In this document: one piece after another, positions 4,724 through 38,354 of the stretch
Layout: every line of letters starts with the position of its first letter
Position numbering within the stretch: position 1 is the stretch's first letter
Assembly: GCA_934246625.1 (NCBI GenBank)
Contig: CAKQHZ010000001.1
Location: 232,338-296,337 of the forward strand
DNA length: 64,000 nt
Origin: an uncultured Alphaproteobacteria bacterium
GTDB lineage: Bacteria > Pseudomonadota > Alphaproteobacteria > Rs-D84 > CACZYB01
Direction: 5' to 3'
Position numbers and translations under genes: made by a program
The notes under the pieces: generated by a model
Told to the model about the DNA's origin: nothing
What the model saw: the letters and a program-made list of their open reading frames with translations, nothing else
Database searches by the model: none

Positions 4724-5665
4724 ATGTTATATTTAATGTTTGTTTTGGGGTTGATTTTGCTTGCTGTGGGCGGTGATGTTATGGTTTCAAGCTCTGTAGA
4801 AGTAGCAAAAAAATTAAAAGTTTCAACTTTGTTGATTGGTATAGTCCTTATTGGATTTGGAACTTCTACCCCTGAATTAGTGGCAAGTATTATCGCAACT
4901 TTTCAAGAAGTGCCTGCTACTGGTATTGCTGTTGGTAATATTGTTGGAAGTAATATTGCAAATATTTTGCTTATTCTTGGAGTTACATCACTTATATATC
5001 CAATAAAAATTGATAAAAAATCTTTCCTTAAAAGAGATATGTGGTTTTTGATTTTTGCAACTGCTATGGTTCTTTTGATGGCTTTGCTTAAAAAAGTTGG
5101 ATTTGTAATTGGTGGAGTTATGATTTTATCTTTGCTTTTTTATGTATATTATAGTTATATCACAGAAAAAAAGTTTAAAAAGGAAACAAAGGAAATTGCC
5201 AATGAAATTGATGTAAAACATACAAAATCTTTGCCTGTTTCTTTGATTATGGCAGTTATTGGAATTGCGATGACAATTTATGGGGCAAATTTATTGGTAA
5301 ATAGCGCTATTGTTATTGCTAAAAACTTTGGTATTTCAGAAAGTATTATTGGACTTACAATAGTTGCTGTGGGAACATCTCTTCCTGAACTTGCATCTTC
5401 TATTACTGCATCTTTGAAAAAACATAATGACCTTGCATTTGGAAATATTGTTGGAAGCAATATTTATAATGTCTTATTTATCTTGGGTATTGTTGCATTA
5501 TTGCAACCTATTATGTTCCCTGTTGATATGGTAAAAGATGTTTATATCTTAATTGCAACTACAACTCTTTTAATTGCAAATGCTTTTATGGGAGGTATAA
5601 GTAGAAAATTTGGTGTTATCTATTTAATTGCGTATGCGTTTTATGTAGCACATCTTATTGGTTAA
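4724..5665 (+). CDS. Ca2+/Na+ antiporter, CaCA family (YrbG-like)
   Basis: Two alpha-repeat motifs (GTSTPELVASI and GTSLPELASSI) within 10 predicted TM helices. AAGGAG RBS lies 6 nt upstream. Confidence 0.8.
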   Translation: MLYLMFVLGLILLAVGGDVMVSSSVEVAKKLKVSTLLIGIVLIGFGTSTPELVASIIATFQEVPATGIAVGNIVGSNIANILLILGVTSLIYPIKIDKKSFLKRDMWFLIFATAMVLLMALLKKVGFVIGGVMILSLLFYVYYSYITEKKFKKETKEIANEIDVKHTKSLPVSLIMAVIGIAMTIYGANLLVNSAIVIAKNFGISESIIGLTIVAVGTSLPELASSITASLKKHNDLAFGNIVGSNIYNVLFILGIVALLQPIMFPVDMVKDVYILIATTTLLIANAFMGGISRKFGVIYLIAYAFYVAHLIG

Positions 5666-10086: not shown

Positions 10087-10985
10087 TGATAAATAATGCT
10101 TTTATTTTAATCTGTATATATTATCCTTTCAAGAAAAAATAAACACGACCAAATGATGATGTTTAATAAAATATAAATTATTACTGGACCACTTAATCCT
10201 ATTGCGAATCACTCACCTAAAAATGATTATGAGGGATTTTGAAAGATTTTTACTTAAAAGACATTGGAATAAAAAGCACATACCATTCATTGCATTTGCA
10301 GAAAAATGAGTATCTGAAGAATGGCATTTTCACTTGCTTTTCAATGGTGGTGAATTTACTCATCAGGAATTAAAAATAGCAACCTACAGGATAATTTTGA
10401 AACAAAAACTACCCGCATACAGTCTGTAAATAGATGAAATAAAAGATGGTGTTGCAAAGGTTGAATGTTATACGATAAAGGAAATCAAAGTCACAGATTA
10501 TAATCATTTTGACAGTGACAGGATTATACTTTCTCACAATTTATTTAATCTGGAGGTAAAATAATTCAATCCCACCTACCCAATATCAACGAAAAACAAA
10601 ATTATAGTAAATTATAAACCAGAACTGTTTAATCGCAATTCTGGCTTGTTTATGTCATTCTAGATAATATTTAGTATTCTTCTGCTAACATAACTGTCAT
10701 TACTCGTATTGTCTTTGTTATATCAGTTGGGTCGTTCGAATAATAACGAAAATCCCTATCATAATAATCAATCTTCCACATTATCTTTTCACCATAATAA
10801 ATAAAACTTCCATAATCGTGTTCATTATATGGGTCGTTCTTACTATTAAAATTATTAAAAGCTTTTCACTCCCTGCAAAATCTCATTTATTGCTTTTTGT
10901 CCTTTGCTGAAAACACCTCTGGTCAACATCACTTTCCCACCTAAAAGGCTTTTACGGAAGTTATCGTTTAGTGTTTGAATATCCA

Positions 10986-11236
10986 TTATCTACCCTCCTG
11001 AATCAAGAATTTATTGAAGCGACGAAGTGCTTGTTTTACGCTTGTGTGAGAACGATTTCCATAAGCAAATTTTTCACCCGCTTTGTAAATTGGTAAGATT
11101 GAAGTAATGTTTTGTGTGAGAGTTTCAAGGCTGATATTTTACTTCTTACAAAGGCAAGTTATACGACCTTGATAGTCCTTTGCAGTGTTAAGTTTGTAGT
11201 TGTTAGCGATAAGCCAATTTTTAAATTTTTTAAGCA
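10986..11236 (-). pseudogene. Fragment resembling a tyrosine-recombinase N-terminal SAM-like domain, interrupted by an in-frame stop
   Basis: Reads MLKKFKNWLIANNYKLNTAKDYQGRITCLCKK*NISLETLTQNITSILPIYKAGEKFAYGNRSHTSVKQALRRFNKFLIQEGR*. There is no catalytic domain downstream. Confidence 0.3.
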
Positions 11237-11528
11237 TTTTAAAACCCTTTCATTTTTTGTTTTACATAATAAATATGTCGTGTTGTTTTGAGAAAATACG
11301 CAAAAAATGTGAGAAAGATGGCTGTTTTTAGGTATTTTTTGAGTAGGTTTGAATTTTATTGAGAAAAATCAAACCTCGTGTCCACATGGACACAAGATTG
11401 AAATCAATAATTTGTTACCACAAAAACGCTAACAAATGATGCTAAACTGAAAATGTGTTTTATCCGAGAATAAAAAAAGACACCTCATATCGCTAATAAT
11501 ACGAGGAGTCATAATTATGGATTACTTT

Positions 11529-12095
11529 TTAATTCTTCATATATCCATCAATAATTAATACTTCTTCTTTTAAAGTTCCATCATCATTATAAATTTTTTT
11601 TATTCCATCTGCTGTACCATTTTTATAAGGAGTTTTTATATTTATTTTTCCGTTTGGAAAATAACCAATATGATAACCATCTGCCTTTCCATTCTTTAAA
11701 TGAACTATACCAGTAATATAATTTGTTCTCCAATTTAATGAAGGGTGCATCATTTCTTTAAAACGTGTAGCATTTTCATAACTATCTCTACCATAAAGTG
11801 TTATCAAATCAAAAGAATAAGTCTTTACAATACCAGTTATAGGATTTCCGTTTTTATCGGTACAGCTTTCCGTTTCTGGTTCTATAGTTAATATACAATT
11901 AACGTCTTTACCAAGATATACTTTTTCAGAAAACAAAGCATAATATCCAATAAAAAGACAACATAATATTGTCAAAATTTTAACAATTTTATATTGCTTA
12001 TAAGATGAAACACATTTTGCTGTATATTTATTTTTATTTAATTTTTCTTCTATTAAAGATGTGTATTTTTTAAGTTGAGTAAGATATTTTTCCAT
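11529..12095 (-). CDS. Membrane-anchored MORN/YwqK-like repeat protein
   Basis: N-terminal TM helix, then repeated G-x-G-x-x-x-Y / NGK units (GIVHLKNGKADGYHIGYFPNGKI...YKNGTADGIKKIYNDDGTL). Confidence 0.4.
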   Translation of the reverse strand: MEKYLTQLKKYTSLIEEKLNKNKYTAKCVSSYKQYKIVKILTILCCLFIGYYALFSEKVYLGKDVNCILTIEPETESCTDKNGNPITGIVKTYSFDLITLYGRDSYENATRFKEMMHPSLNWRTNYITGIVHLKNGKADGYHIGYFPNGKINIKTPYKNGTADGIKKIYNDDGTLKEEVLIIDGYMKN

Positions 12096-12110
12096 TTTTT
12101 TATCCTTTCA

Positions 12111-13043
12111 TTAAAATCCATTTAAAGTTTCAGCACATAAAGTAAGCCAACTATTATCATTAAGAATCTGCTCCATTCTATCAGGGTTTTCGTAAGCAAG
12201 CTTTACAGATTCTTTCATAAATGTATAAGCTTCAGCTCCATGAGAATAAGTACTTTCTATCATTTTATATGCAATATTAATAGGAGTTCCATTTCTTCTA
12301 TGTCCAACTATAACGTTCATTATAGTAGCAAAATTAGAACATATTCTTCCTCCCATAGTTTCCAATATTCGTTCTTTTTCAGCAAGTCTTTTAGCTTCTT
12401 CAGGATGTTCTTCTGCCCACTTCCGATTTATTTCAGCTTGTCTTGCTAATTCAGCTTCTTTTTCTTTTTTAGCTTTTTCTCTAGCTGCTTTTTCATTGGA
12501 TATACTCTTATCTATTTCAGAAACAATTTTTAAAATTTCAGATAATTTAGCATCTAAACCTGCAATTTGTTCATCAGTTAATGAGCTACTACAAATAAGA
12601 TTTTCAAATTCTTGTATAGCATTTTCAGCTTTATCTATAACTGCTGAAATTTTTTTGTTTGCATCATATCTATTTTCATATCCCAATTGACTTAATTTTT
12701 TTAATGATTCATTAAACTTTTTATTTAAATTTTCAACTTTCCGTATATATTTTAAATAAACTCCAAAATTTTTTCCGAAATTATCATAAAAATTTAAAAA
12801 ATCATATTTATCATCAAATCCCCATTCTTTTTTGTAATCTGTATATTTTTGAAAATATGTTCTTATATCAGCATAAGAATATCCTTGATTCAAATATTTT
12901 TGATATGTTTCTAAATCGAAATGGCAAGAATAATCTCCACAAATAAGACTATATTGTTCTTCATCATCACTTTGAGACCTTGCAAAAACCTCATTAAAAT
13001 TTAAGCAAAATAAACAAAGTATTAAAAAAATTTTTTTTAACAT
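12111..13043 (-). CDS. Secreted coiled-coil protein, hypothetical
   Basis: Signal peptide MLKKIFLILCLFCLNFNEVFA and a Lys/Glu-rich coiled-coil core. The stop overlaps the upstream gene start. Confidence 0.35.
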   Translation of the reverse strand: MLKKIFLILCLFCLNFNEVFARSQSDDEEQYSLICGDYSCHFDLETYQKYLNQGYSYADIRTYFQKYTDYKKEWGFDDKYDFLNFYDNFGKNFGVYLKYIRKVENLNKKFNESLKKLSQLGYENRYDANKKISAVIDKAENAIQEFENLICSSSLTDEQIAGLDAKLSEILKIVSEIDKSISNEKAAREKAKKEKEAELARQAEINRKWAEEHPEEAKRLAEKERILETMGGRICSNFATIMNVIVGHRRNGTPINIAYKMIESTYSHGAEAYTFMKESVKLAYENPDRMEQILNDNSWLTLCAETLNGF

Positions 13044-13681
13044 ATTTTTTCGGCCTCCTTCTTTACTTTTTTAACTGAAAATTTTTTATCCCATTCATCC
13101 AAAACATCGTCATCATCTACAGTTTTCATAAGATACATAAGATGGTCTAAATCTTCATCTGATACATGTGTAATTATATAATTTGTTTGGCAAATACATT
13201 TAAAATCTCCTCCACATGTTGGAACAAAAGCTGTTCTCATTTCTTTTCTAAACTCATCATAATCAACAGGTTTTTCCTCTTTTTTAGGACTATTTGGATT
13301 AAAACATTTTTCTTCAGCTTTCTTAGATATAGCTTGTATAGATGGTTTATTCCAGAAATTATTAAATTTAGGAGTTTTATTTATTTCTATCGCTTTTTGG
13401 AAAATATTTGCAACATCTTTCAAGTCTGTTTCAGATAAATTATTAGCAGTATAATTTGTTTTACATTTACAATCTATATCATCACAAGATTTTAGCATTA
13501 CATCTCTAAACAATTCTCTAATTTCTTCAGAAGAAGCTTCTTGTAAATTTATTTTTTGTTCATTAGATTCTGTTTCTGTTATACTATTAATCCCATTTAA
13601 ACTTTTATCAACAATATCCTTTAATTGAACACATGCTGCAAAACTAAATACCATAGGAATTATAAACAATTTTTTATTCAT
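13037..13681 (-). CDS. Secreted Cys-rich protein with an internal duplication, hypothetical
   Basis: Signal peptide, then two copies of a C-x-C-x-T-N-Y...S-E/D-x-D-L-x module (DIDCKCKTNYTANNLSETDLKDV and GDFKCICQTNYIITHVSDEDLDHL). Confidence 0.35.
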   Translation of the reverse strand: MNKKLFIIPMVFSFAACVQLKDIVDKSLNGINSITETESNEQKINLQEASSEEIRELFRDVMLKSCDDIDCKCKTNYTANNLSETDLKDVANIFQKAIEINKTPKFNNFWNKPSIQAISKKAEEKCFNPNSPKKEEKPVDYDEFRKEMRTAFVPTCGGDFKCICQTNYIITHVSDEDLDHLMYLMKTVDDDDVLDEWDKKFSVKKVKKEAEKIC

Positions 13682-13698
13682 TTTATTTCTCCTTATTC

Positions 13699-14157
13699 TT
13701 ATATTTGTTTAATTAAAAATTTTAGCCCTGAAACTTTTGTATCAAGCCAATTTTCATTAGATAACGGATTTTTCTCTTCATTCTTACGAGAACTTCCATT
13801 ATAATCACATTCCACTTCTGATAAAAATATACCAAAACAATAAGTATTATTAGATTTCAGTTTTTCTAAATTTTTACAATCGTCTATAAAACTACTTCTT
13901 TTATTTGTATTACCTTGATTAATTTTATCATATTTAAATTCAATATAATAATTAATATTATTCACAACAAAATACATATCAACATCATGACCATTACGAT
14001 GCTCTTCTGTATGAAGTTTTTGTAAATTTTGTTTTAATAAACCATCAGATACATAATTTCTGAAATCATTTTCATCTTCTGGGTGAAAATTAAGATTTTC
14101 AATTATTTTAATTAAAACGTTTAACATTGTTCTTCCTTGTTTATAATTAAACTTCAT
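13699..14157 (-). CDS. Hypothetical protein
   Basis: ORF only. It is the first gene of the minus-strand 14157-to-11529 cluster. Confidence 0.3.
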   Translation of the reverse strand: MKFNYKQGRTMLNVLIKIIENLNFHPEDENDFRNYVSDGLLKQNLQKLHTEEHRNGHDVDMYFVVNNINYYIEFKYDKINQGNTNKRSSFIDDCKNLEKLKSNNTYCFGIFLSEVECDYNGSSRKNEEKNPLSNENWLDTKVSGLKFLIKQI

Positions 14158-14195
14158 ATTAAATCCAGTCGATTTTTGCTATTTTTAATATACAC

Positions 14196-14319
14196 AAATC
14201 ACCGTCTATTTGATATAGTCTTATGCAATCATTGGATATGCTAGCTTTTATAGAAATTAGTTGACTTTTAGGGTTAAAATTCCTAAAATGGAAATGTATT
14301 AAATATAGACGGTGGTTTA
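14196..14319. promoter_or_regulatory. Candidate invertible promoter switch: 10-13 bp inverted repeats flanking a near-consensus sigma70 promoter
   Basis: IR-L at 14196-14217 contains CACCGTCTAT. IR-R at 14301-14319 contains ATAGACGGTG. Between them are TTGACT (14261-14266), a 17-bp spacer and TAAAAT (14284-14289). The element lies immediately upstream of a serine recombinase gene. Confidence 0.3.
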
Positions 14320-14405
14320 TTTGTCATATTTAATTTTCACAACAAACATTAGGTAAAATCTGGTAGTTCTTATAGTTGTAAAAACAACAAATAGGAGCTA
14401 AAAAA

Positions 14406-14993
14406 ATGATTTATGGATATACCAGAGTTTCAACTGAACTACAAAACACCGAAAATCAAAAACACGAAATTCAAACCTTTGTAAAGTCGCAGAAAATCAA
14501 GATTGACAAGTGGGTGGATGAAATAATTTCTTCCCGAAAATCATTAAAAGAAAGGCAACTGGGTAAACTTTTAAAACATCTTAAAAAAGGGGATATTTTG
14601 ATTGCTTCGGAACTTTCAAGACTTGGCAGAAATTTGCTTGAAGTTATGGGAATTTTGCAAAGCTGTTTGGAAAAAGATTGCCAAATATGGACCTTAAAAG
14701 AAAACTATAAACTTGGTGCAGATATACAGTCAAAAGTCCTTGCATTTGCGTTTTCGTTGGCTGCTGAAATTGAGCGACAACTTATTTCTCAACGGACAAG
14801 GGAGTCATTAAAAAGGATAAAAGATGAAGGTAAACATCTTGGCCGGCCATTTGGATTTAGTTATAAAAAACTTGATGCAAAGAAAGGTAAAATCCAAGAA
14901 TTACTTTCAAAAGATATTTCCAAAGCCGAAATTGCAAGGCTTCTAGATTGTTCTTGGATAACACTTCACAGGTATATACGAAAGTCATTGTAA
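14406..14993 (+). CDS. Serine recombinase (resolvase/invertase family)
   Basis: N-terminal MIYGYTRVSTELQN with the catalytic Ser, SELSRLGRN, and a C-terminal HTH. Confidence 0.8.
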   Translation: MIYGYTRVSTELQNTENQKHEIQTFVKSQKIKIDKWVDEIISSRKSLKERQLGKLLKHLKKGDILIASELSRLGRNLLEVMGILQSCLEKDCQIWTLKENYKLGADIQSKVLAFAFSLAAEIERQLISQRTRESLKRIKDEGKHLGRPFGFSYKKLDAKKGKIQELLSKDISKAEIARLLDCSWITLHRYIRKSL

Positions 14994-15309
14994 AAAACCT
15001 TGTATTGCTGATAATACAAACTTTATTTATTTGTTATTCATAATCAACTAAATTTTTTTGTAAAAGCATAAGTAATAACCATTAAAATTAGTTCAATAAT
15101 TACACCGTATCGCACTTAACTAATTGCATAATACTTAGTATAAAACCCTTTTTTCTAAAGCAAACAAGTTTTTAATAAAATTAATTTTAATTAACGCATA
15201 AAAAACTCATCTTATAGGGGATACATTTTCCTTCTTATTTTACTTAAATTTTTAACATTAAAATCTTATAACTCATTTTACATATCAAATAAACATTATT
15301 TTTTATTTT

Positions 15310-17901
15310 CTAATATTTCGATAATACTGTAATTATCTCCTGTTTTATTTTCTGTGGAAAATCGTAATTTATCCAATCTGGATTGTTATTAAACCAAGAC
15401 AAGCATTGTTCCTGAGTTAAGTTATCACTTGTCATGTATTCAAATATATAGGATACTGCCGTACGAGAAAAACCTAAATATAACAATGATAACTGTGTTT
15501 TTTGACTAACACCGAATTCCAAGAAAACTGAAAAATCTTGAATTTCTTGAACTAAATCATTTCTATTAATACTCGTCAAATAATATTTCAATACATCTGA
15601 ATAGCATTTAAGATATTTTGGGGCTGTATATCTTGCAAATTTTTCTATTAATTCCATTGTTTCCCTGATCAATGTATTTGTATTTAGTGAATCAGAATAA
15701 TTCCTTGATTTTATATAGTTAATTCTGTTTGTTATAATTCTCTTTAATGGATACCCTCTCATCCAATTCACTACTATAATTGAGCAACTATATAACGAAC
15801 GACTTGAGTAATAAATTCGAGTTAAATGATTATTGATTCTTTGAAACGCTTTGTTATAGATACCAACAGCATTTTCACTAGCAGGATCGCATAGTAATAG
15901 CTCCTCAATATTCTTTTTTTTATTTTTATTGCGTTCTATAAAATAATTATACAGTCTAATTATATGCATAGAATTTATGCCTGGATTATTTTCTATAATA
16001 TCCAAAGGGAAGGGTAAATTTTGATAAATATTTGCAATCTCGCTTTCTATCTCATCAATGTTAGGAAAGAAATTACTCCATTTATATTGTTTTATTGTCT
16101 TATATCTTCCATATTGTGCCACTAAATATGACACAAACTGATCAAATAAATGATTAGGCTGTGCGTTTATATCTTGACATTTTATATAGTTTAAAAAACT
16201 TGTTGTCTTAAACTCTTCATTATCGATAAATTTCCTAATGTAGTATTTCTGTCTTTTCTTTGGAGCTTGTCCATCCGTCCAGATATTTTTATCGTTGGGA
16301 TCAATACAGATTATATTACCTTGAAATTCAGTTCCCCATCGTCCTGCTCGTCCCGCTAAATTCCAAAAATCAGCATTTGACATTAACTGTTGTTTCCCTT
16401 TTTTAGGGCCTCGCATAAATATACTTCTACACGACAAATTAACACCTTCAACCAATGTAGAGGTACAAACTAAATGTGTAATAATATTTTCATTGAATAA
16501 TCGTTCTATTTCTGCTTTTATTAAAATAGGCATATTTCCATAATGAAAAGCTACACCACGTTTTAGAACTTTACATAGAACATATTCTTCATGGATAGTT
16601 TTCTTACATAAATCAATTAATGAATTTAGTGCTTCATCGTTTTTATTGTTATCTTCACCCAACAAATCACATATTAACTGAGCAATCTTTTCAGCATCTG
16701 CAGCACCATTTACATATATAATATTACCTTTAGCAATTATATTTTGATTATGGGTTAATGCATCGACCATATAAGCAATTCTTTTTTGATCAGAATTGGG
16801 GGATGATTTAAGAGAAATATTATTCAAACAATATTCTTCATTACCACTTATCAGCTTCAAAACCCATTTCTTAGATGAATGAGGCTGTTGTTCTACCCAC
16901 AGAATGTTCTGATTAACCGTCAGTTCTTCACCTTTGATACAATGTGTTTGTTTTTTCTCATCTATATCTTCAAGTAATCGTTCTGGATTAGCAGTAAATG
17001 GGCTAACAAAAACTAATTTAAGATTACTATTTTCAAATATTCCCCATTCTATAATTTGTTGCAATAAAAGTCCACGATTATCATCACCTATCTTATAGGC
17101 TTCGTCAATAATCATTGCAAATATATTTAATTCAAAATTCAACGAAGAAAGTAATAGATAAAAACGTTCTTGCGTAAATACGAAAATATTTGATTTATTC
17201 CAATCTAAAATATCATTTATTGGCATAGATGTCACATTGACTTTTTCTTCCAGAGCATTATCGTTTATTAGTTTTTTAAAATCTTCTTCTAATTCATATA
17301 TTAAAGCTCGCGTAGGAACAATATATACTATATTTACTTTGTTATTTTCTTTTATTTGATCGATAATCCATTGTTTTACTATAAATGTTTTACCTGCAGC
17401 TGTTGGAGCTGTAACACTCAAATATTTGTAACATTCCAAACTTCTCCAAAAATTATTTTGAAATTTATTCGCAAATATTTTCTTTCCGTTGTTTGTGTCT
17501 ATAAGATTTTCTTTTCTACATCTTGTCCAAAACATTTTAGATGAAAAATTTAGACGGTTTTCTATATGTCCTTCTATAAGGTTTCTTTTTTCTGCTAAAT
17601 TAATGGCCGGAATGTTAGATAAAGAATTAAGAATAATGGTCGCCATATCTCTATGTTCAGGTGATACAGCACAAGATATACATGTCTGGGTAATTCTTAA
17701 AACCTTATCAAAATTAGAAACATCTTTTGCTAAAATACTTGCACATAGTAGCAAATATCCCCAATCTATATCTGCTTGCGTATCTTTTTCCTTAATAAAT
17801 ATGCCATCGAACTGTTCTTCAACAGATAAAAGGAGAACCTTTAAATACATATTACTAAAGTATTGGTTATTATTTATCCATTCCAATAAAGTTTCTTGCA
17901 T
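15310..17901 (-). CDS. Ski2-like SF2 helicase, candidate Hachiman HamB
   Basis: Helicase motifs are TAPTAAGKT (I), PTRAL (Ia), IIDEAYK (II), SPFTA (III), FHYGNMP, TSTLVEGVNL (V) and QLMSNADFWNLAGRAGR (VI), after a roughly 160-aa N-terminal domain. The start is 3 bp from the upstream DUF1837-like gene. Confidence 0.5.
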   Translation of the reverse strand: MQETLLEWINNNQYFSNMYLKVLLLSVEEQFDGIFIKEKDTQADIDWGYLLLCASILAKDVSNFDKVLRITQTCISCAVSPEHRDMATIILNSLSNIPAINLAEKRNLIEGHIENRLNFSSKMFWTRCRKENLIDTNNGKKIFANKFQNNFWRSLECYKYLSVTAPTAAGKTFIVKQWIIDQIKENNKVNIVYIVPTRALIYELEEDFKKLINDNALEEKVNVTSMPINDILDWNKSNIFVFTQERFYLLLSSLNFELNIFAMIIDEAYKIGDDNRGLLLQQIIEWGIFENSNLKLVFVSPFTANPERLLEDIDEKKQTHCIKGEELTVNQNILWVEQQPHSSKKWVLKLISGNEEYCLNNISLKSSPNSDQKRIAYMVDALTHNQNIIAKGNIIYVNGAADAEKIAQLICDLLGEDNNKNDEALNSLIDLCKKTIHEEYVLCKVLKRGVAFHYGNMPILIKAEIERLFNENIITHLVCTSTLVEGVNLSCRSIFMRGPKKGKQQLMSNADFWNLAGRAGRWGTEFQGNIICIDPNDKNIWTDGQAPKKRQKYYIRKFIDNEEFKTTSFLNYIKCQDINAQPNHLFDQFVSYLVAQYGRYKTIKQYKWSNFFPNIDEIESEIANIYQNLPFPLDIIENNPGINSMHIIRLYNYFIERNKNKKKNIEELLLCDPASENAVGIYNKAFQRINNHLTRIYYSSRSLYSCSIIVVNWMRGYPLKRIITNRINYIKSRNYSDSLNTNTLIRETMELIEKFARYTAPKYLKCYSDVLKYYLTSINRNDLVQEIQDFSVFLEFGVSQKTQLSLLYLGFSRTAVSYIFEYMTSDNLTQEQCLSWFNNNPDWINYDFPQKIKQEIITVLSKY

Positions 17902-17904
17902 GTT

Positions 17905-18873
17905 TTATCCTTTATCTGGAAAAATTCCCAAACATTTATGAAATTCTGTTCTTAATTCATTTACAGATTTAAAAGGAATACAGAAGAAATGTATAACAAA
18001 AGAGTCTAATCCTTTCATTTTTAGTTTATTTTGAATAACTATATTCAATTTCGGTATTTCTTTTCGAATTTTCTTTTCTACATCTGAAATAGTTTCTTGA
18101 TTGGGAGATTGAGGATAATAATTATCTTGTTCAAAGCCAACAAAAGCTATGGCTCTTATTTCGAGTTTATTAAATTTAGGACTATCTCTATCTAAATACT
18201 CCTTAAGTACATCTTCCATTTTTTTATCATTAAGATCTATAAACTGCTTTAATAGAATAAAATCCCTATTATCTGCGGACAAGATACCACCATTCGCATT
18301 AAGTAAGGTATTTAAGCTATTTAAGCAATCTTCAACTGCGGTAGGAAAATCTTTATAAACTTTTGATTCTCCCCAATGTAAAGCTAAATTATTATCCTCT
18401 GTTAATCCAAGATATACTCCATCTGCACCATGGAAGTACATATTATGATTTGTTTTTAAATTCATTTTACATATCACTTGGGGAATTTTTAAAAATTTTT
18501 CTGCTAATACAAATAAAATTAGTTCACCTAATTCACCTGACTTAACACTATCGACAAATGTTTCCTGTGCTTCTTGCCGTAATTTCATCATATTTCTGGT
18601 TGTTGAATTTTGGTTATCCCTATTTTTTGCTTCAACAATACGACTTCTTGGAATTACATAATCAATTATATCACAAACCACACAATCCACAAAATCTTTT
18701 GTTCGATCCCGTCCGTTGCCATCTAATTCAATACAATGCCAATAAGATATTGTTTCTGTTTCATCTATCTTTTTTTCTTTTTCTACAGTGTGTAAGAAAG
18801 CTTCATAGCTATTGAAATCACCCCTAGCTAATCTATTTAATATACTCAATAAAAAATCTTCGTTCTCAGACAT
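17905..18873 (-). CDS. PD-(D/E)xK-like protein, candidate Hachiman HamA (DUF1837-like)
   Basis: The E ... D ... ExK pattern (GELGE, HGADGV, HWGESKVY) sits directly upstream of, and translationally coupled to, the helicase. Confidence 0.45.
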   Translation of the reverse strand: MSENEDFLLSILNRLARGDFNSYEAFLHTVEKEKKIDETETISYWHCIELDGNGRDRTKDFVDCVVCDIIDYVIPRSRIVEAKNRDNQNSTTRNMMKLRQEAQETFVDSVKSGELGELILFVLAEKFLKIPQVICKMNLKTNHNMYFHGADGVYLGLTEDNNLALHWGESKVYKDFPTAVEDCLNSLNTLLNANGGILSADNRDFILLKQFIDLNDKKMEDVLKEYLDRDSPKFNKLEIRAIAFVGFEQDNYYPQSPNQETISDVEKKIRKEIPKLNIVIQNKLKMKGLDSFVIHFFCIPFKSVNELRTEFHKCLGIFPDKG

Positions 18874-27940: not shown

Positions 27941-29749
27941 TTATGATTCTTTAATCTTATTCAACCAAAATAAATACCATTTATCCTGAATATGTTCTTT
28001 AATTTTATTCTCAATACTAAGAGTATTCAATTTGTTATTTTCTAAACAAAAATTATATAGAATTAAAAATTTAGATAAAGGATAACCCTTTTTATGTTTA
28101 TTTTTAGGAAATAAATATTCTTTTAAATAATGTATATTTTTACATGATCTAATTTCATCCATATTATAAATTACAGAAGATGCATCATTATAGTCACGTT
28201 GTAAAATGAAACTACGTAAATCATTGTATTCATCTTTTAAGTCTGGTAATAAACGAAAAAGAATAGATGAAACTTGTCTAGTTAAAAATGAATTTTTGAT
28301 CCAAAGATTTCGATATTTATTTATATGTTCATAGATAGATTTTGGTGTTTCATATTTAGCAGCAAACCATAAGTAACTATAAAAATTAAATTCTTTATCC
28401 TTAATAGTTAATGATTTTAAATATTTAGATATATAATTTATATTTTCAATATCCACTCTTGAATATCCAATATTCCAATCTATAATTAAAGCAACCAATA
28501 AAAATAACGTTATATCATCATATCTTGTAATATTTATCAATGATTGAAAAATTTTATATGTTTTTTTAGTATATCCTAATTTATATAAATATTGACATAC
28601 ATTAGTTCTCAGATCTGAATATTCTTCAAAAATTCTTGGTAAATATTTTAAGATTTTAGTAAAATTGTTATTTCCAGCAATAGTCAAAAATCTTTTTAAA
28701 ACCTTATCAAAATTTTTATATTGTTTATTCTTGTTCCAATGTCTTCTAAAATATTTCATAAACTCTTTTTCTTTTGGGGGATTTTTGTCAAATATATTTA
28801 ATTGAATATTTTCGTCAAATAAAAAATGTCTTTTTGCCTCAGAAGCATCAAGAATCTTTGTTTTTGACATATTAAGAGACAATCCTCTACTTTTTAAAAC
28901 ATCAGATATATTGCTTAAAATTGACTTAGCCTCCCTTATATCATCAATACCAATAACAATATCATCCATCCATCTTACAAAATTTTCATTTATTTGATAT
29001 TTTAATAAGTAATCAATTTCAAAAAGAAAAGAATGTGCTAATAGTCTAATTGCTTCTAAATTAATTGTAGGCATTCCAATTGATTGATTGGGTAAATAAT
29101 CTGGTTTCCATGATAAATCTTCAATTATATTAAAAATTAAATCTAATAAAACTTCGTCACATTTGATATACCCAGAAACTACACTTCTTAACTCATTTAA
29201 CCGTATACTATCAAAATAATTTGATAAATCTGTTATAATAATATATTTTTTTGTTTTTGTAAATTGAAGAATTTCATTTTGATATATTTTCCATTGTTCA
29301 AACCAATCATTATAATCCGTATTTATTTCATGAGGAAGTTTAATAGAAGAACTTTTATCTCTAGAATAATAAGCATGATTTGAAGGTGCCTGTTTTTCTA
29401 AATCATTACAAAAAGGTTCTATAAGAGCTTGTAAAATAAGAGTGTCACTAGGAGATAAAATAATCATATGGCGACAAATGCCAAATTTTTTCTCTAATGT
29501 ATATATAATTGGTATTTGCGATTTATATTGACCAGAAATAATTTGTTCATTAATTTTACTTGTATTATAATCTATTCTTCTATGAAAATCATAAAAATCA
29601 TGTAAATCAAGAATACTCATACTCCTTACTTGACTCTTAACTTTATGTTTCCATAATGTTTTTAAAGTATCCTTTTTAAATGGATTTTCTAACTGTTTTT
29701 GCCTTTTTTTAAATCTTAACGTTATAGGTTTAGACATTTTAAAACTCAT
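27941..29749 (-). CDS. Reverse transcriptase, stand-alone Abi/defence-type (AbiK/Abi-P2/UG-like), with an RT domain plus a roughly 300-aa helical C-terminal extension
   Basis: RT motifs are FGICRHMIILSPSDTLILQALIEP (1/2), IITDLSNYFDSI (A), GMPTINLEAIRLLAHSF (B'), FVRWMDDIVIG (C, with MDD replacing YxDD) and SLNMSKTKIL (D). There is no maturase, endonuclease or intron-like domain. Confidence 0.8.
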   Translation of the reverse strand: MSFKMSKPITLRFKKRQKQLENPFKKDTLKTLWKHKVKSQVRSMSILDLHDFYDFHRRIDYNTSKINEQIISGQYKSQIPIIYTLEKKFGICRHMIILSPSDTLILQALIEPFCNDLEKQAPSNHAYYSRDKSSSIKLPHEINTDYNDWFEQWKIYQNEILQFTKTKKYIIITDLSNYFDSIRLNELRSVVSGYIKCDEVLLDLIFNIIEDLSWKPDYLPNQSIGMPTINLEAIRLLAHSFLFEIDYLLKYQINENFVRWMDDIVIGIDDIREAKSILSNISDVLKSRGLSLNMSKTKILDASEAKRHFLFDENIQLNIFDKNPPKEKEFMKYFRRHWNKNKQYKNFDKVLKRFLTIAGNNNFTKILKYLPRIFEEYSDLRTNVCQYLYKLGYTKKTYKIFQSLINITRYDDITLFLLVALIIDWNIGYSRVDIENINYISKYLKSLTIKDKEFNFYSYLWFAAKYETPKSIYEHINKYRNLWIKNSFLTRQVSSILFRLLPDLKDEYNDLRSFILQRDYNDASSVIYNMDEIRSCKNIHYLKEYLFPKNKHKKGYPLSKFLILYNFCLENNKLNTLSIENKIKEHIQDKWYLFWLNKIKES

Positions 29750-29819
29750 TAAATATTATTTTGCAAAAATATATTATCTTTATAAGTCTTTTTCAATAAA
29801 AAATATGAATTATTATCTT

Positions 29820-32800
29820 TTATCCAAACAATCTATCCAGTTCTTCTTCTAAAATACCTTCCTTAACAAGAGGAAGTGTATCAACTTGTTTCAAATTATG
29901 TTTTTGAATGAAATTTTCATTATCGAAACCAAGGATATATGATATAGCAATACGATAAATTATTTCTGTCGGTGCTAATCCATAAACTTGCTTTTCAAAA
30001 ATATGCTTTAATCTATCTTTTGAATCAGGATAAATCTTTATCAATTTAGGATTATTATATAATCGTTTTACAATTTCAGTGATATATAATCCTGATTTCA
30101 TATATAAATCAATAAATGTTTTATCTGGATCTGTAAAGCAATCTGGACATTCTTTTTCTAAATTATCTACCATTTCTTTTACTACTTTTTTAGGCGTAAA
30201 GATTTGGTTTGTTTTTTGTGGTGGAATATAATCAAAAATATCCTCAGTGTTATTTTCATCAAAATAATTGGAAAGTTTAGTTTTCAAATTTAAGAATTCC
30301 TTAATGGAATCATTGAAAACAATAGGATCAAATAGATGTCCATCAAAATGCTCCATTTTTCCTGTTTTTTCATCTTTATAATCTCCACCATCACGTAAAA
30401 ACTTAAATTCAGCAAGAGAAATACTTGTAACTTCTTTAAATACTTCATCTGGTATAATTGTATCAAAGTTTTCTAATGTTGTGTTTTCATTACCATAAGC
30501 CATTAAAAATGAAGGTATTGTTCTTGAAAAACCTCTTAAATAGTCTCGAACTGAATCTTCTATGGCTGTTTTTTCTTTTTGCCTTTTATCTGTTTCTACT
30601 CTTTCAATAATTGTATTTCCTGTATTTTGAATAAGTTCAGGAAGTTTATTCTTCAATTCTGAAATAAATGTTGTTTTGTTTTCAGCAACTTTCAAATCAT
30701 ATAGTTCATTAATTTTATCTTTTTCAAAATCAGATGCTGTTTTTAATTCTTTTTTTCGTTCTAATTCTGTCTGATTTTGTAAGATTTTATAATTACCATA
30801 TTCTTTATCAAAAACCTGATTTGTTGTATTTAATATTGTTTGAGTAATTTTCTTTAAAGAGCTGGTTGTTACAGCATTTTTGTAGTTTGTTTTTACTGTA
30901 TCAACAAAAGTTTCTTCAACTTTAGCTTTAAATGTATCTTTTAATTCTTTTAATTTCTCATCATCTTGTTCAGGTTGGTTATTTTGCAATTCATTTACAG
31001 TTTCAACTAAATCTTTATTAATACTTTCATAAATCTTATCTCCAAATATTTCATTCGCTTGACCAATAATAAAGTTTTGTGAAAGTTCTACTTCTCCATC
31101 TTCATTTAAAGATAAATCATCTTTTGTATTTTGATTAATTGGTAAAGGTTCTTTTGTCTTTTCAAATTTTTTTATAATATCAACAACTTCTTGTGGTGCA
31201 TTGAATATGTTTCCAATATTCTGGAATAAGAAATTACTCATAAAACCACGTTGAACGACTTCTTGTGCATGGATTTTACGAGGAATAGATAATACCTGTT
31301 CAGCCTTAAGAAGTATCATTTCACCATCCTCATCTTCACCATAAACAGGGAAAAAGTTTAAAAGTTCTCTAACATTTTGTTTCCTTGTATCACTATCACC
31401 TTGTCCACTTGTTGTATTTATACTTAAATCGTTAGCAAATTTTTCAACAATTTCCAAAGTTCTTGCTGGATCAAAATCAAATACATAAGCATTTTCTTTT
31501 CTAAAGAATTGTCTATCTTTATGGAATATACAAGGATTTTGCGACCTGAAAGCTGTTTGCATATATAATGCTGGACTTTTAACATTACCAAGCATTAAAA
31601 CTGCTGTCCATTCAGGAATTGTAATTCCAGTAGTTAATTGTCCTACAGATAGAGTAATTGTCTTTTCATAATTCTTTATGCCATTAACAACTTTATTAAA
31701 TGCATTTTCACGTTCTTCGTCTTCATTAAGTTTACCATCCCCAGCGGCAACAATAATTTCATAATTTTTAAATATAGGGTGATTTTTTAATTTTTTTGCC
31801 AAAGCTTTAACACTACCAACTCTATCTAAAAACCAGAATGTATGATTAAGTTCATCTCTTAATTCTTGAGTTGAAAATGGAAATTTAGTTTTTATAGTTA
31901 ATGCATCCAAAAATTTATCAACGGCTTCATCATACTTAAAACTTCCATTTTCATTTGTTGAAAAGAATTCATTCAAATCAAAAGCATATTCTCTAATATC
32001 ATCATCAGATAAATTGCATCCCTGTTTTACCTTGTCTTCAATAATATCTGACATCTTATATGTATAAAGATTTAATTGAGGTAAGTTTTGATAAGGATTT
32101 TCTTCTTCGTTTGATGTATCCCAATTTTTTTTTGCATTTTGTTCATCAGCATAAGTCCAATTAAATATAGCTTTCTCTTCAAATTTATTATTTGCTAAAG
32201 CTTTAAATGGCGTTCCAGATAAATGAAGTGTAAATTTTCTTTTTATTTGATCAAAGGCAATGTCAGTATGATATGTATCAACACCTTCATGTGCTTCATC
32301 AATTACTAATAAATCCCAGTCTAAATCTTTAATCTCTTTAAGTTTATCATATTTTCCACCAAAGTAGATTGACCCTTTTAAATCTTGTAATGATACAAAT
32401 TCAATACATCCTTTATGATTTCCATCGTTAAGTTTATTTAAGTATTCTTCTCTTGATAGAACATATTCTTTACTTTTCAAAGTACTAACTTGACTAACAA
32501 AATAATATCCTGAATTGGTACCTAAAAACCTTTCATAATCAGCATACCAAGAATTAGCAATAGCTGGTCTATTCGTTACAATTAAAACTTTTTTTGCATT
32601 TATCTGTTTGCATAAGTCATAAGTTGATAATGTTTTACCAAATCTAGGTTTTGCATTCCATAAAAATTCTGGTTCATCATCTTTATGACTTTCAAAATAT
32701 TCTTTTGTTTGAGAAACAGCATTAAATTGCTCATTTCTAAGTTTGTATTCTATTACAGGTTTTGTTTCTAAAATTCCTCTGTTTTCTTTAAATTCATAAA

Positions 32801-33119
32801 ATTTTTCTTTTGAATCTTTTGGGGATATTTTAAACCATTCTGTATCCGGTTTTCTTTCAATATTGTTTTTCTTAAGGTAAGCGTGAAAATCTGTATCATG
32901 GAAAACCTCGCCAGAACCATCCTCATATATAGCATTAGATTTCCATTCCAATACAAATTTTACATCTGCAGTTTGAGTTTGCTGTTTTATACGAGTTTCG
33001 ACATCTTGTTCTGTAAAACCAATCTTTGTCCATCCATCATGTTCTTTAATCTCAGGAGTTGTATATGCATAACACATAGGGACAATTTTCTTTAATGTTT
33101 TAATATTTAGTTTTACCAT
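29820..33119 (-). CDS. Multidomain protein: N-terminal T5orf172 (GIY-YIG-like) domain, SF2 helicase (ResIII-type, DEAH), long linker, and a C-terminal degenerate MTase N-lobe
   Basis: CYAYTTPEIKEHDGWTKIGFT...VETRIKQ is T5orf172-like. Helicase motifs are Walker A NAKPRFGKT, LLVIDEAHEG and LSGTPF. The C-terminus carries IFTPKKVVKEMV (motif X), FIDLYMKSGLYI (degenerate motif I) and QVYGLAPTEIIYRIA (motif II), with no NPPY. The start is taken at the internal MVKLNIK, 1 nt after the upstream gene's stop. The track start at 33155 overlaps the upstream gene. Confidence 0.7.
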   Translation of the reverse strand: MVKLNIKTLKKIVPMCYAYTTPEIKEHDGWTKIGFTEQDVETRIKQQTQTADVKFVLEWKSNAIYEDGSGEVFHDTDFHAYLKKNNIERKPDTEWFKISPKDSKEKFYEFKENRGILETKPVIEYKLRNEQFNAVSQTKEYFESHKDDEPEFLWNAKPRFGKTLSTYDLCKQINAKKVLIVTNRPAIANSWYADYERFLGTNSGYYFVSQVSTLKSKEYVLSREEYLNKLNDGNHKGCIEFVSLQDLKGSIYFGGKYDKLKEIKDLDWDLLVIDEAHEGVDTYHTDIAFDQIKRKFTLHLSGTPFKALANNKFEEKAIFNWTYADEQNAKKNWDTSNEEENPYQNLPQLNLYTYKMSDIIEDKVKQGCNLSDDDIREYAFDLNEFFSTNENGSFKYDEAVDKFLDALTIKTKFPFSTQELRDELNHTFWFLDRVGSVKALAKKLKNHPIFKNYEIIVAAGDGKLNEDEERENAFNKVVNGIKNYEKTITLSVGQLTTGITIPEWTAVLMLGNVKSPALYMQTAFRSQNPCIFHKDRQFFRKENAYVFDFDPARTLEIVEKFANDLSINTTSGQGDSDTRKQNVRELLNFFPVYGEDEDGEMILLKAEQVLSIPRKIHAQEVVQRGFMSNFLFQNIGNIFNAPQEVVDIIKKFEKTKEPLPINQNTKDDLSLNEDGEVELSQNFIIGQANEIFGDKIYESINKDLVETVNELQNNQPEQDDEKLKELKDTFKAKVEETFVDTVKTNYKNAVTTSSLKKITQTILNTTNQVFDKEYGNYKILQNQTELERKKELKTASDFEKDKINELYDLKVAENKTTFISELKNKLPELIQNTGNTIIERVETDKRQKEKTAIEDSVRDYLRGFSRTIPSFLMAYGNENTTLENFDTIIPDEVFKEVTSISLAEFKFLRDGGDYKDEKTGKMEHFDGHLFDPIVFNDSIKEFLNLKTKLSNYFDENNTEDIFDYIPPQKTNQIFTPKKVVKEMVDNLEKECPDCFTDPDKTFIDLYMKSGLYITEIVKRLYNNPKLIKIYPDSKDRLKHIFEKQVYGLAPTEIIYRIAISYILGFDNENFIQKHNLKQVDTLPLVKEGILEEELDRLFG

Positions 33120-33120
33120 A

Positions 33121-33501
33121 TTACACCATCTCCTTTTTATCCAATTGAATTCCATTTACTTTTGTTTTTAATTGTTCAATTAGTTTATATTTATGTTTTT
33201 TGATATAATATTTACGTAAAAATAAAGAAATAATTTCTATAAATAATCCAATAAAATAAATATACACGTTATCTATATATAAAGTTTCAAAAATATTAGA
33301 AATGGTAAAAGATAAGATACCAACACATTTTAAATATCTTTCTTTTAAATATTCTTCTATCAAATTTGTATTACAATCTAAATATGTTGAACTTTTTGCT
33401 AAAATATGCTCATCTGAATCTAAATTACATATTATTAATATAATACCAAATATTTGCAAAATAAGTTTTAATACAGTAGATAAACTTAAATAAATAAACA
33501 T
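33121..33501 (-). CDS. Small membrane protein (3 predicted TM), translationally coupled to the helicase gene
   Basis: Hydrophobic segments LILQIFGIILIICNL, VGILSFTISNIF and IYFIGLFIEIISLF. The TAA stop lies 1 nt before the downstream ATG. Confidence 0.35.
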   Translation of the reverse strand: MFIYLSLSTVLKLILQIFGIILIICNLDSDEHILAKSSTYLDCNTNLIEEYLKERYLKCVGILSFTISNIFETLYIDNVYIYFIGLFIEIISLFLRKYYIKKHKYKLIEQLKTKVNGIQLDKKEMV

Positions 33502-33516
33502 TTTTACTCATCTCCT

Positions 33517-34506
33517 TTAGACAGTTTTTTGTTCAATATACTTTATTTCTTCTAATGTAAGATTATATTTTTCATATAAATCTTTGTTGTTCCATTTCTT
33601 TGAAAAATCTTGGATAGGTACAAATTTATAAACATTTCTTGCTGCATTTTGTGATTTTTTTATTTGAGATATTAAGTATTTATATAGATTAGTATTCATA
33701 TATGAAATAACATTTTCACATATTTCTTTACTATCAAATGGTCCCACAACTAAATATGTTTCATTACAAGCTGTTCCTGGTGCTCCATAGAATGGTAATC
33801 CATTAAATTTTGCAGAAATTTCTCCTGCTTTTGATACATAAACTTTATGCTGATCAATCCATTCTTTTTTAGAAATAATTTTATTTCTATCTATATATGC
33901 AAACTTTTCATCTGAACGATCTCGAGAAAATCTATAAATTTTAATGGAATTTTTTTCTTTTTTATTTGAAAAATAATTTTTATAATTTCCAACTTTTCCA
34001 TTAGCAAAAGGAGAATATGTTGAAACTAAATCCATAAATGATGCAAAATCTTTAGAATATATTCCAACTTTAGTTACTATTTCATCAGCTTTTGGATCTC
34101 TTATAAAAAATTCTGTTCCATGTTCAGCCATGTTCCTAATATCTGTTTTCACTATATCGCCATCTATATAGGTATATTTTGTATGTGCTGTAACATTTTT
34201 ATCATATATAAAGTATGATACACCACCAGCTAAGGAAATATTTGTTTGAAAAACCTTATTTGCATCAGTATAATCAACCATAGATGAAATATGATTATTT
34301 TTTAACATAAATTTTCTAAATTCATCTAAACCAGTTCCACCTGTCATCCATAAACTTGGTGTAATCATAGAAACATAATTAGCTTTTAAATTAATTGCAC
34401 TTTGTACAAAATGATGATAAACAGGATTTGCTTGAGAAATAGATCCTGAATTATTTGCAACTAATTCCTGATAAGGTGGGTTTCCAATTATAACATCAAA
34501 CTTCAT
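33517..34506 (-). CDS. N6-adenine DNA methyltransferase catalytic and target-recognition half (gamma-class, Eco57I/TaqI-like)
   Basis: The protein begins at motif IV: MKFDVIIGNPPYQ. It lacks the AdoMet-binding motifs X and I, which are found in the upstream ORF. Confidence 0.75.
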   Translation of the reverse strand: MKFDVIIGNPPYQELVANNSGSISQANPVYHHFVQSAINLKANYVSMITPSLWMTGGTGLDEFRKFMLKNNHISSMVDYTDANKVFQTNISLAGGVSYFIYDKNVTAHTKYTYIDGDIVKTDIRNMAEHGTEFFIRDPKADEIVTKVGIYSKDFASFMDLVSTYSPFANGKVGNYKNYFSNKKEKNSIKIYRFSRDRSDEKFAYIDRNKIISKKEWIDQHKVYVSKAGEISAKFNGLPFYGAPGTACNETYLVVGPFDSKEICENVISYMNTNLYKYLISQIKKSQNAARNVYKFVPIQDFSKKWNNKDLYEKYNLTLEEIKYIEQKTV

Positions 34507-35438
34507 TTTTTAGCTCCTTTCAAATCTTTGAAATAGATAGTTTTTCCACTACGCCAATCTTTGATTTTGCAAAGTATTGGTGTCGAAAGTTGTATATCTG
34601 TATTAAATAAATCTGGTTGAAAATAATCTTCTTCTGTTGTTGCAAATGGTACAGTATCGTTTAAACCATCCATCTGCCATATATTCCATGAAATAATATT
34701 TGCAATTTGCTCAATCTGTATAAGACTTGGTTCTTTATGATATTTATTCTGATAGTAATCAATAAAAGTCCAAAGCAAATTTTCCCTTGCCAATAATAAA
34801 TTATCGCCTTGGTATTCATAACCATAGGTACTTTCAAATGCTCGCTTAACCCAATTAAACCAATCTGTATCATTATTTGTGTTTTCGTTAACGACACGAA
34901 GTTTTCTATCTAAAATACCTATACGTTTTATGATTGGTAAGATTTCACCAGTTGTGGTATCATATCTTGAAACTAAATATGGTGCCTCACCACAAGTAAT
35001 TTCAAGTCTTCTTGAATCGACATAACTTTTCCAATCCTTGTCGTTAAAATCTATAAATCTTTCATTTGGTATCCAATCTTGATTTTGTTGGATATTGAAT
35101 ACATTTTTGTAACCAAACCATTCTTCATCACAAAGATTATTCATTTCATTACAAATCCAAGATGGAGTGAAAACTTCTGCTGATTTATGGGTACGATTTT
35201 TTTGTTCTTCTTTGTTTTTGGCAATTCTTGGCTGAATAATAGAGGTATTCTTATCAATAATTAATTCAGGTAAGATTTCTTTTTCTTTTGAATAATCATC
35301 ACCATATTTTAGATATTCATCGCATGCCCAATGGATATATCTCCCTGTTGTCTTATCCCTTAGTAATATCTTTAAAAGATAAGGACTTAAGACATGTATA
35401 TATTGCTCAAGAATATCTATGTTACTTTCAATAACCAT
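34503..35438 (-). CDS. N6-adenine MTase N-terminal (AdoMet-binding) half; a split MTase or a frameshift-separated gene
   Basis: AEVFTPSWICNEM is motif X-like and LEITCGEAPYL is motif I-like. The ORF overlaps the NPPY ORF by ATGA. Confidence 0.5.
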   Translation of the reverse strand: MVIESNIDILEQYIHVLSPYLLKILLRDKTTGRYIHWACDEYLKYGDDYSKEKEILPELIIDKNTSIIQPRIAKNKEEQKNRTHKSAEVFTPSWICNEMNNLCDEEWFGYKNVFNIQQNQDWIPNERFIDFNDKDWKSYVDSRRLEITCGEAPYLVSRYDTTTGEILPIIKRIGILDRKLRVVNENTNNDTDWFNWVKRAFESTYGYEYQGDNLLLARENLLWTFIDYYQNKYHKEPSLIQIEQIANIISWNIWQMDGLNDTVPFATTEEDYFQPDLFNTDIQLSTPILCKIKDWRSGKTIYFKDLKGAKK

Positions 35439-35554
35439 CTTTTTAGATGCGGAAAATAATATCCACCCATATTAATTTTCATTGATTATTGAGAATTTTT
35501 TGCTAAAATATTGAGAGAATTTTATTAATAGAACAGTAAAATATATGGGTCATT

Positions 35555-36163
35555 TTATATATGCTTTTGTAAATGATTTTTTATATATTTATTGAGTGTT
35601 GGTTTAGTAATTTTTAGTTTTTTTGCAACAATATATTTGGGTAATCCTAATCTTAAAAGACTAATGATTTTATCTTTTTTCTCTTCAAGTTTATTGTGCT
35701 TATTTTTACTTCCCTTCGGTCTTCCAATTGTGGAACCTTCTAAAAGTCTGCGTTTCAATCCCTCTATAGTCCTTTGACTTATCAAATCTCTTTCCATCTC
35801 TGCAAATGCACTTAAGATTGCTATCATCATCTTTCCCATAGGGGTGTTATCAATCGACATTCCTTGCTTTACAAGATAACAATTCACACCTTTTTTCACA
35901 AGCAACTGACAAGTATTTATAACATCACTTGTTGATCTTCCAAGTCTAGATAGTTCTGATGTTATAAGCACGTCTCCTTTATCCAATATTTTTAGTAAGG
36001 TTCCCAGTTTACGTTTCTTTGCAAGAATTGTGCCACTGACACCTTCATCAATATATTCTTTATCTATTTTCCAATTCATTCTGTTTACAAAATCTATTAC
36101 TCCAAGTTTTTGACTTTCATAGTTTTGCAATTCTGTAGATACTCTGTAATATGCATATATCAA
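35555..36163 (-). CDS. Serine recombinase (resolvase/invertase), paralogue of the 14406-14993 gene
   Basis: MIYAYYRVSTELQN, SELSRLGRS, and a C-terminal HTH. Confidence 0.8.
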   Translation of the reverse strand: MIYAYYRVSTELQNYESQKLGVIDFVNRMNWKIDKEYIDEGVSGTILAKKRKLGTLLKILDKGDVLITSELSRLGRSTSDVINTCQLLVKKGVNCYLVKQGMSIDNTPMGKMMIAILSAFAEMERDLISQRTIEGLKRRLLEGSTIGRPKGSKNKHNKLEEKKDKIISLLRLGLPKYIVAKKLKITKPTLNKYIKNHLQKHI

Positions 36164-36495: not shown

Positions 36496-36663
36496 TTTTA
36501 ATATCCTTTATTAAATCCTACATGGTATATTATATGTTTCCCAAAATTTAATACTTTGGTATGAATAAAAAGTATAAGATAAATATCAATTTTTGAACTT
36601 ATCAAACATATATAAATTAAATGAAGTTTTAAAATTTGATACATACAATAGTAAAAAATGATA

Positions 36664-37264: not shown

Positions 37265-37381
37265 ATTTTATCTCCTCTTTTTTTTATTAATATTAAGGAA
37301 TTATCTCATTCCTTTGTTTATAAGAGGTAATATAGATTGATATTTTTAAAAAGAAATCCCAAAAGGCGCTTTTGGGGTCAA

Positions 37382-38278: not shown

Positions 38279-38354
<76 letters not shown>

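Follow-up and report, generated by a model that had tools for sequence, protein, structure and literature searches.

Organization of the locus

The window, the whole stretch of 64,000 nucleotides of DNA that was analysed, is derived from an uncultured alphaproteobacterium and has a G+C content of 29%. An A+T-rich host from human gut metagenomes is indicated by the NCBI names of FtsH relatives and by where the samples came from. A gene for a small serine recombinase is located on its plus strand next to a cluster of four genes on the minus strand, and the two are separated by a gap of 248 bp (14158-14405). A sequence-only reading of this DNA had placed a candidate promoter switch between these genes, and a cassette of 127 bp (14194-14320), including both recombinase sites, was indeed found in the gap. 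The features are listed in Table 1. For comparison, about 50 related loci (designated L) were fetched by exact-protein look-ups with ten recombinase variants (designated P) and the first cargo gene.

Table 1. Coordinates of the proposed promoter switch and its neighbouring genes in the window
Feature	Position	Strand	Description
Cargo cluster, four genes	11529..14157	-	152-aa cytoplasmic protein, 214-aa lipoprotein, 310-aa secreted protein, 188-aa membrane-anchored MORN-repeat protein
Cargo-side leader	14128..14193	-	Between left site and cargo ribosome-binding site; homology to L044, L067, L058 and L090 reaches 14124-14158
Left recombination site	14194..14209	+	ACAAAT-CACC-GTCTAT, 16-bp imperfect dyad; conserved in 11 cassettes
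Invertible segment	14202..14312		Site centre to site centre, 111 bp; from the window vs L058 alignment and BLAST of L058 and L090
Inner box TTGATATAG	14210..14218	+	Adjoins promoter-distal site; 0.96 identity
Sigma-70-type promoter, predicted	14261..14289	+	TTGACT-17-TAAAAT, 10/12 matches; points at recombinase gene
Inner box TATTAAAT	14297..14304	+	Adjoins promoter-proximal site; 1.00 identity
Right recombination site	14305..14320	-	ATAAAC-CACC-GTCTAT on minus strand, inverted relative to left site; mean column identity 0.81
Recombinase-gene leader and ribosome-binding site	14321..14405	+	Conserved; much of it (from about 14333) also upstream of the cassette-less paralogue
Small serine recombinase, Mpi-like, 195 aa	14406..14993	+	N-terminal catalytic domain, C-terminal helix-turn-helix

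The cluster had been described as one of secreted, Cys-rich and coiled-coil proteins. When the N-termini are read by eye, the products of genes two to four are predicted to be a lipoprotein, a secreted and a membrane-anchored protein, but the 152-aa product of the first gene has no signal peptide. Also by eye, the signal of the 214-aa lipoprotein ends in FSFAAC, and the first gene probably starts at the ATG at 14127 (Met11), after AGGAAG. The cargo proteins gave no family matches except MORN_2. The same cluster was found linked to the switch in L001, L002, L086 and L087.

The recombinase gene is followed on its right by a complete Hachiman defence system, which is encoded on the minus strand (15310-18873; HamB helicase, 863 aa, and HamA, 322 aa). 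L086 carries the same cargo, switch and recombinase, followed by HATPase_c_3 and DNA-methylase genes in place of Hachiman, and the switch is thus situated at a variable defence island. A probable integrated island further to the right (27941-38354), beside tRNA-Thr (38279-38354), contains a reverse transcriptase, a 1111-aa ResIII helicase, a split Eco57I-like methylase, a Rep_O/HTH_36-like protein and a second recombinase gene, described below. On the other side of the cargo cluster, 1.4 kb (10087-11528) contain no ORF longer than 60 aa. Within this region MLKKFKNWLIANNYKLNTAKDYQGRITCLCKK (11139-11237, minus strand) resembles by eye the N-terminal SAM-like domain of tyrosine integrases and may be the remains of a decayed integrase gene.

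The serine recombinase

The recombinase matched the Pfam Resolvase family at 2.3e-31. Over its full length it matched NCBIfam NF009949, the master DNA invertase Mpi family, with 268.5 bits (E = 3.4e-80), which is 3.5 bits under the curated cut-off of 272. Homologues that are 84-89% identical to it bear the NCBI name Mpi family, and its architecture, a catalytic domain with an active-site serine followed by a C-terminal helix-turn-helix, is that of the Mpi family. The closest solved structure was the Gin invertase, with whose active site the YTRVST motif (Ser9) was aligned.

Two further recombinases of this kind were encountered. A 199-aa paralogue (P0116; L068 1838-2437 and L044 10915-11514) has RNase T and NDK as neighbours in a conserved housekeeping context. 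Its identity to the window recombinase is 83% for the protein and about 78% for the DNA, and it has kept the same leader of about 70 nt, with the cassette absent. This paralogue could supply invertase in trans. The second Mpi-like serine recombinase of the window (35555-36163) is 44% identical to the first and scored 170 bits on NF009949. The repeat core of the cassette, for which a check near this gene had been proposed, was looked for there and was absent, as was any cassette. The window contains one cassette, and in L044 and L081 two cassettes were found around one recombinase gene.

Inverted repeats of the cassette

The repeats had been described as a perfect 10-bp core with an imperfect extension, and this was borne out. 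The core, CACCGTCTAT at 14200-14209, is matched by its complement ATAGACGGTG at 14305-14314, and a repeat search extended the arms to 14 nt (14196-14209 / 14305-14318), 13 of the 14 positions being complementary (93%), with 95 nt between the arms. Perfect 10-bp inverted-repeat pairs whose arms are 30-150 nt apart number 64 in the window, and a 10-bp repeat is therefore by itself unremarkable. The pair of the cassette is G+C-rich, however, in a window of 29% G+C, and ranks second in information content among these pairs. An equally or more informative pair occurred in only 0.11% of 20,000 Markov-1 sequences of 248 bp. First in information content in the window is CGGACGAACAA (57550-57560 / 57652-57662), a perfect inverted repeat inside a PP-loop ATPase gene (TilS-like, 57177-58178), which is probably coincidental.

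No other copy of the repeat core was found in the window except one copy with a single mismatch at 45719, inside a gene. Scans of genome and metagenome contig collections for CACCGTCTAT-N80-110-ATAGACGGTG returned only unrelated chance matches of differing G+C content, and a 16-mer scan of viral contigs returned no real cassette. In the plasmid collection only distant Mpi-family genes were found, with the cassette absent. An Rfam search of the cassette region gave zero family matches.

Promoter, inner boxes and leaders

A near-consensus sigma-70 promoter between the repeats, aimed at the recombinase gene, had also been proposed and was recovered in the present analysis. In a promoter scan of 13000-15500 it was one of the two best sites, and the number of promoter-like sites in this interval (17) was close to the shuffle expectation of 16.1. 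Support for the promoter came from the comparison of the 11 cassettes, in which TTGACTTT of the cassette promoter had a column identity of 1.00 and the -10 hexamer of 0.90. The -35, -10 and inner boxes were conserved at 0.90-1.00, compared with 0.52-0.64 for the remainder of the cassette. The promoter is thus predicted from consensus match and conservation.

The TTGATATAG box may be the outer part of a recombinase half-site. It may also be a TGn-TATAGT extended -10, as the promoter scan also listed TACACA-17-TATAGT with TG at 14191-14219. The leader of the recombinase gene contained no promoter with at least 9 of 12 matches and no convincing independent recombinase promoter.

Recombination sites in related loci

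The 11 distinct cassettes of the comparison set could be aligned end to end once they had been oriented by their promoters. The spacing between site centres was 109-115 bp. Both arms of the repeat were kept in all cassette-bearing loci despite 20-30% divergence of the DNA around them. The consensus of the site in each arm was MYARAC-NNNN-GTYTRK, a 16-bp imperfect dyad, with a column identity of 0.80-0.81 across the 11 cassettes. The central four bases differed among cassettes (CACC, CAAC, GACC, and GAAC with CAAG), and the changes were present in both arms. The central dinucleotide was identical between partner sites in all 11 cassettes, being AC in nine and AA in two.

Serine recombinases such as Hin, Gin and the resolvases make 2-bp staggered cuts at the dyad centre, and matching overhangs are needed for re-ligation. 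The matched central dinucleotide fits this requirement well. Crossover in the left site of the window would accordingly be expected at the central AC (14201/14202).

Orientation of the cassette

Loci with the recombinases P0118 and P0117, which are 82% identical to the window recombinase, carried the cassette in 10 of 11 cases, and in all ten it was inverted relative to the window; the eleventh locus, L066, has a single site. The inversion was seen in a comparison of the window with L058. Aligned in the same direction, the flanks were 71% (left) and 78% (right) identical, whereas the inner segment matched better in reverse (77%) than in the same direction (63%). Collinear, reversed and again collinear segments were found independently by BLAST for L058 and L090. 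In L058, L064 and L090 the cassette is flipped exactly between collinear flanks. The inner half-sites and their adjoining boxes are swapped in the flipped loci and the outer half-sites have remained in place, which puts the inversion breakpoints in the site cores. The cassette promoter of L058 occupies the other strand, faces a lipoprotein gene and is the sole promoter of the gap with at least 9 of 12 matches. The prediction that the flipped promoter would face the neighbouring cargo was thus supported by homologous loci (L058, L064 and L090).

In the other seven cassette-bearing recombinase groups (that of the window, P0010, P0011, P0017, P0042, P0075 and P0101) the promoter faces the recombinase gene in all contigs. 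Both orientations within one locus type were not found among the approximately 50 related loci, which are represented by assembled consensus contigs. Likewise, no opposite orientation of the window locus was seen among the five contigs listed of 13 with the cargo gene. Four of these five match the window orientation over all or part of the cassette, and the fifth, L088, is without a cassette. The window locus is also present in the samples behind the assemblies ERZ27286984 and ERZ27241620 and the runs ERR7738215, SRR13378613 and SRR31228106, and one of the junctions predicted for its flipped state reads ...ACACAAATCACCGTCTATATTTAATACATTTCC... Contigs ending at or in the cassette (L065, L084 and L089) were no more frequent than chance allows. 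ORFs spanning the cassette junctions in the orientations found were never called as genes.

Truncated cassettes facing cargo, with a single site and with the recombinase-proximal site missing, were observed in L075 (3453-3545), L079 (3879-3964) and L066 (103-194). The recombinase of L066 is P0118, as in L058-type loci. These three may be derivatives that have become locked in nature. In L079 the recombinase gene is also flanked by an inverted repeat of 33 nt (73%), which was judged to be a chance product of A+T-rich sequence.

Cargo genes and the shared module

Homology between loci, as determined by BLAST, begins at 14124-14191 and ends at 14977-15019. From the shared start and end, the leader, the cassette and the recombinase gene were recognized as a module of about 0.87 kb, which adjoins different divergent cargo in different loci. 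In L044 and L081 the cargo consists of an HTH gene, two lipoproteins and a Slam homologue, in L048 of a 1205-aa Eco57I-type (type IIG) restriction-modification enzyme, and in L067 of lipoproteins with LpoB-like and CsgG-like proteins. L058 and L073 carry single lipoproteins or small membrane proteins. Phase variation typically affects cargo of the kinds seen in these loci, namely a type IIG restriction-modification enzyme, a CsgG/LpoB cluster, and surface lipoproteins together with Slam, and the proposed phase-variation context of the switch was in this respect supported.

A second, more diverged cassette was observed 3' of the recombinase gene in L044 (6902-7026) and L081 (about 4903-5027). 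The conserved leader of this cassette is situated at its right-hand side, towards a 35-aa ORF and genes for a HAD hydrolase and a cytidylyltransferase. As found, the promoter is directed towards the recombinase gene, whose 3' end it would read in antisense. The central dinucleotide is AA in the second cassette, compared with AC in the first. L088 (1-112), a contig of 1.8x coverage, carries the identical 152-aa cargo gene and its leader, departs from the window directly after ACAAATC, inside the left-site core, and continues into a hairpin resembling a terminator (AATCGCACGATTT...AAATCGTGCGATT). This contig may represent a module-free allele, or it may be chimeric.

Proposed mechanism and alternative explanations

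The region 14194-14320 is best explained as an invertible promoter cassette (inverton) operated by the adjacent Mpi-like serine invertase, a reading to which we assign a probability of slightly under 0.8. Inverted repeats bracket a short segment, and the predicted promoter faces different genes in the two orientations. Both orientations between the same flanks were seen across homologous loci, not within a single locus type. In the proposed mechanism, recombinase dimers would bind the two inverted 16-bp dyad sites and then synapse. Cleavage at the matching central AC and strand exchange would flip the 111-bp segment together with the only strong promoter of the gap. In the window orientation, transcription would run from the promoter through the right site and the 85-nt leader into the recombinase gene, leaving the cargo OFF. 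After inversion, the minus-strand cluster of lipoprotein, secreted and membrane protein genes would be transcribed by way of the left site and the conserved leader, and the cargo would be ON. The window recombinase would be the catalyst of the reaction, and its expression would be coupled to the orientation of an active promoter.

Three other explanations were considered. The cassette could be an autoregulated recombinase promoter, with the sites serving as operators for autorepression, the flip in L058 being one ancient rearrangement and each locus now being fixed. The orientation of every locus type is uniform across samples and, in all but one of the eight cassette-bearing recombinase groups, the promoter is directed at the recombinase gene, as this explanation would have it. 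A dimer bound to the right site, between promoter and gene, could block transcription, and the single-site cassettes of L075, L079 and L066 are apparently locked. However, autorepression needs neither inverted sites, nor a matching asymmetric central dinucleotide, nor core changes in both arms. Inversion breakpoints exactly in the site cores, a conserved cargo-side leader adjoining the left site and cargo typical of phase variation also speak against autoregulation, which we regard as improbable. Less probable still is a role in mobility or resolution, in which att-like or res-like sites would serve the insertion, excision or exchange of the 0.87-kb module and inversion of the promoter would be a by-product. 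Homology sets in at the left site or slightly to its left (14183-14191; L048, L073 and L081) and runs as far as the stop codon of the recombinase gene, unrelated cargo is found beside the module in different loci, and L088, with the same cargo gene, diverges from the window within the left-site core, all of which would suit a mobile module. Against this, no transposase, no directly repeated sites, no three-subsite res architecture and no site at the right boundary of the module were seen, and L088, with its low coverage and only 112 nt upstream, may be chimeric. The presence of only two sites, in inverted orientation, would give inversion and not excision.

Finally, an inverted repeat could by chance surround an ordinary promoter in A+T-rich DNA. 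Perfect 10-bp pairs at similar spacing are common in the window, as noted, and promoter-like hexamer pairs are no commoner than in shuffled sequence. The probability of such a pair in the gap is nevertheless about 0.001, and both arms are conserved in all cassette-bearing loci, with matched core changes and 20-30% divergence around them. On account of this conservation chance was excluded as an explanation, being the least credible of the three.

Among the points that count against the inverton reading itself is the uniform orientation of each locus type, since a single ancient inversion would give the same pattern. The short loop and the NCBIfam score just under the cut-off count against it as well. 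As no locus with both orientations was found, we infer, and have not observed, active and reversible switching at the window locus. Furthermore, if the recombinase used the cassette promoter alone, cargo-ON loci should accumulate, yet most loci are cargo-OFF. Possible explanations for the recombinase-facing majority are autorepression via the right site, selection against cargo expression, or recombinase supplied in trans from paralogues.

A more far-reaching and rather doubtful suggestion is that the module (about 14124-14996) is a portable phase-variation unit that contains its own toggle. Either the invertase or the cargo would be served by the one promoter, and the supply of invertase would be set by its own switch state; in some loci (e.g. 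L044) a second cassette would contribute antisense input. The unit would be exchanged between chromosomal contexts at the left-site core, and the difference between AC and AA might keep the cassettes of one genome from recombining with each other.

Comparison with known systems

Mpi of Bacteroides fragilis is the closest parallel to the window system. Both recombinases are small serine recombinases of about 195-200 aa, and the window protein comes close to the cut-off of the Mpi-family model. The Bacteroides Mpi repeat core, ARACGTWCGT, resembles ARAC-NNNN-GT of the window-type sites. The targets of B. fragilis Mpi are about 170-190 bp long, and the window-type loop of 109-115 bp is short by comparison. 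As proposed for the window system, Mpi flips short promoter segments between short inverted repeats, thereby controlling surface structures (PMC4747536, PMC10403206). Mpi acts remotely on 13 regions and has no adjacent inverton of its own, its neighbour being the tyrosine recombinase Tsr19 (PMC4747536). In contrast, the window recombinase gene shares the 0.87-kb module with its target, and the promoter reads in one orientation into the recombinase gene itself. The window system also differs in its shorter segment, its sigma-70-type promoter and its alphaproteobacterial host.

Hin with hix of Salmonella and Gin with gix of phage Mu are likewise small serine invertases acting on dyad-symmetric inverted sites with an asymmetric 2-bp crossover, and in the case of Hin the flipped segment carries a promoter. 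In these systems the recombinase gene is located inside or beside an invertible segment of 1-3 kb and a Fis-bound enhancer is required. The window system does not have this layout, as its recombinase gene is located outside the 111-bp segment and not in, or abutting, a kilobase-sized one. The fimS element of Escherichia coli is also a short invertible promoter that adjoins recombinase genes and controls a surface structure, and expression of FimE depends on the orientation of the switch; an analogous coupling is proposed for the window. FimB and FimE are tyrosine recombinases, and fimS has a length of 314 bp, 9-bp repeats and a dependence on IHF and Lrp. In Tn3 and gamma-delta, a small serine recombinase binds to res sites that overlap the tnpR promoter, from which it is itself expressed, resulting in autoregulation. 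A res site differs from the window arrangement in having three subsites, in being recombined only as directly repeated copies (resolution) and in being accompanied by a transposase; none of these was seen in the window. Invertons as a class have been catalogued across phyla (PMC11602134). No description of a window-type system was found in a literature search.

Significance

If the inverton reading is right, the range of promoter switches of Mpi-like serine invertases would reach beyond the Bacteroidales and include an A+T-rich lineage of uncultured alphaproteobacteria from the human gut, with a recombination site defined to the base as a 16-bp dyad with a matched central dinucleotide. To our knowledge the switch, with about 111 bp between crossover points, would be among the shortest serine-recombinase promoter invertons known, and the cassette could be put to use as a compact synthetic switch. 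With the flipped reference sequences, orientation ratios become directly measurable in existing gut metagenomes. Within the lineage, one compact type of switch would serve lipoproteins with Slam, a CsgG/LpoB cluster, a type IIG restriction-modification enzyme and a secreted-protein cluster.
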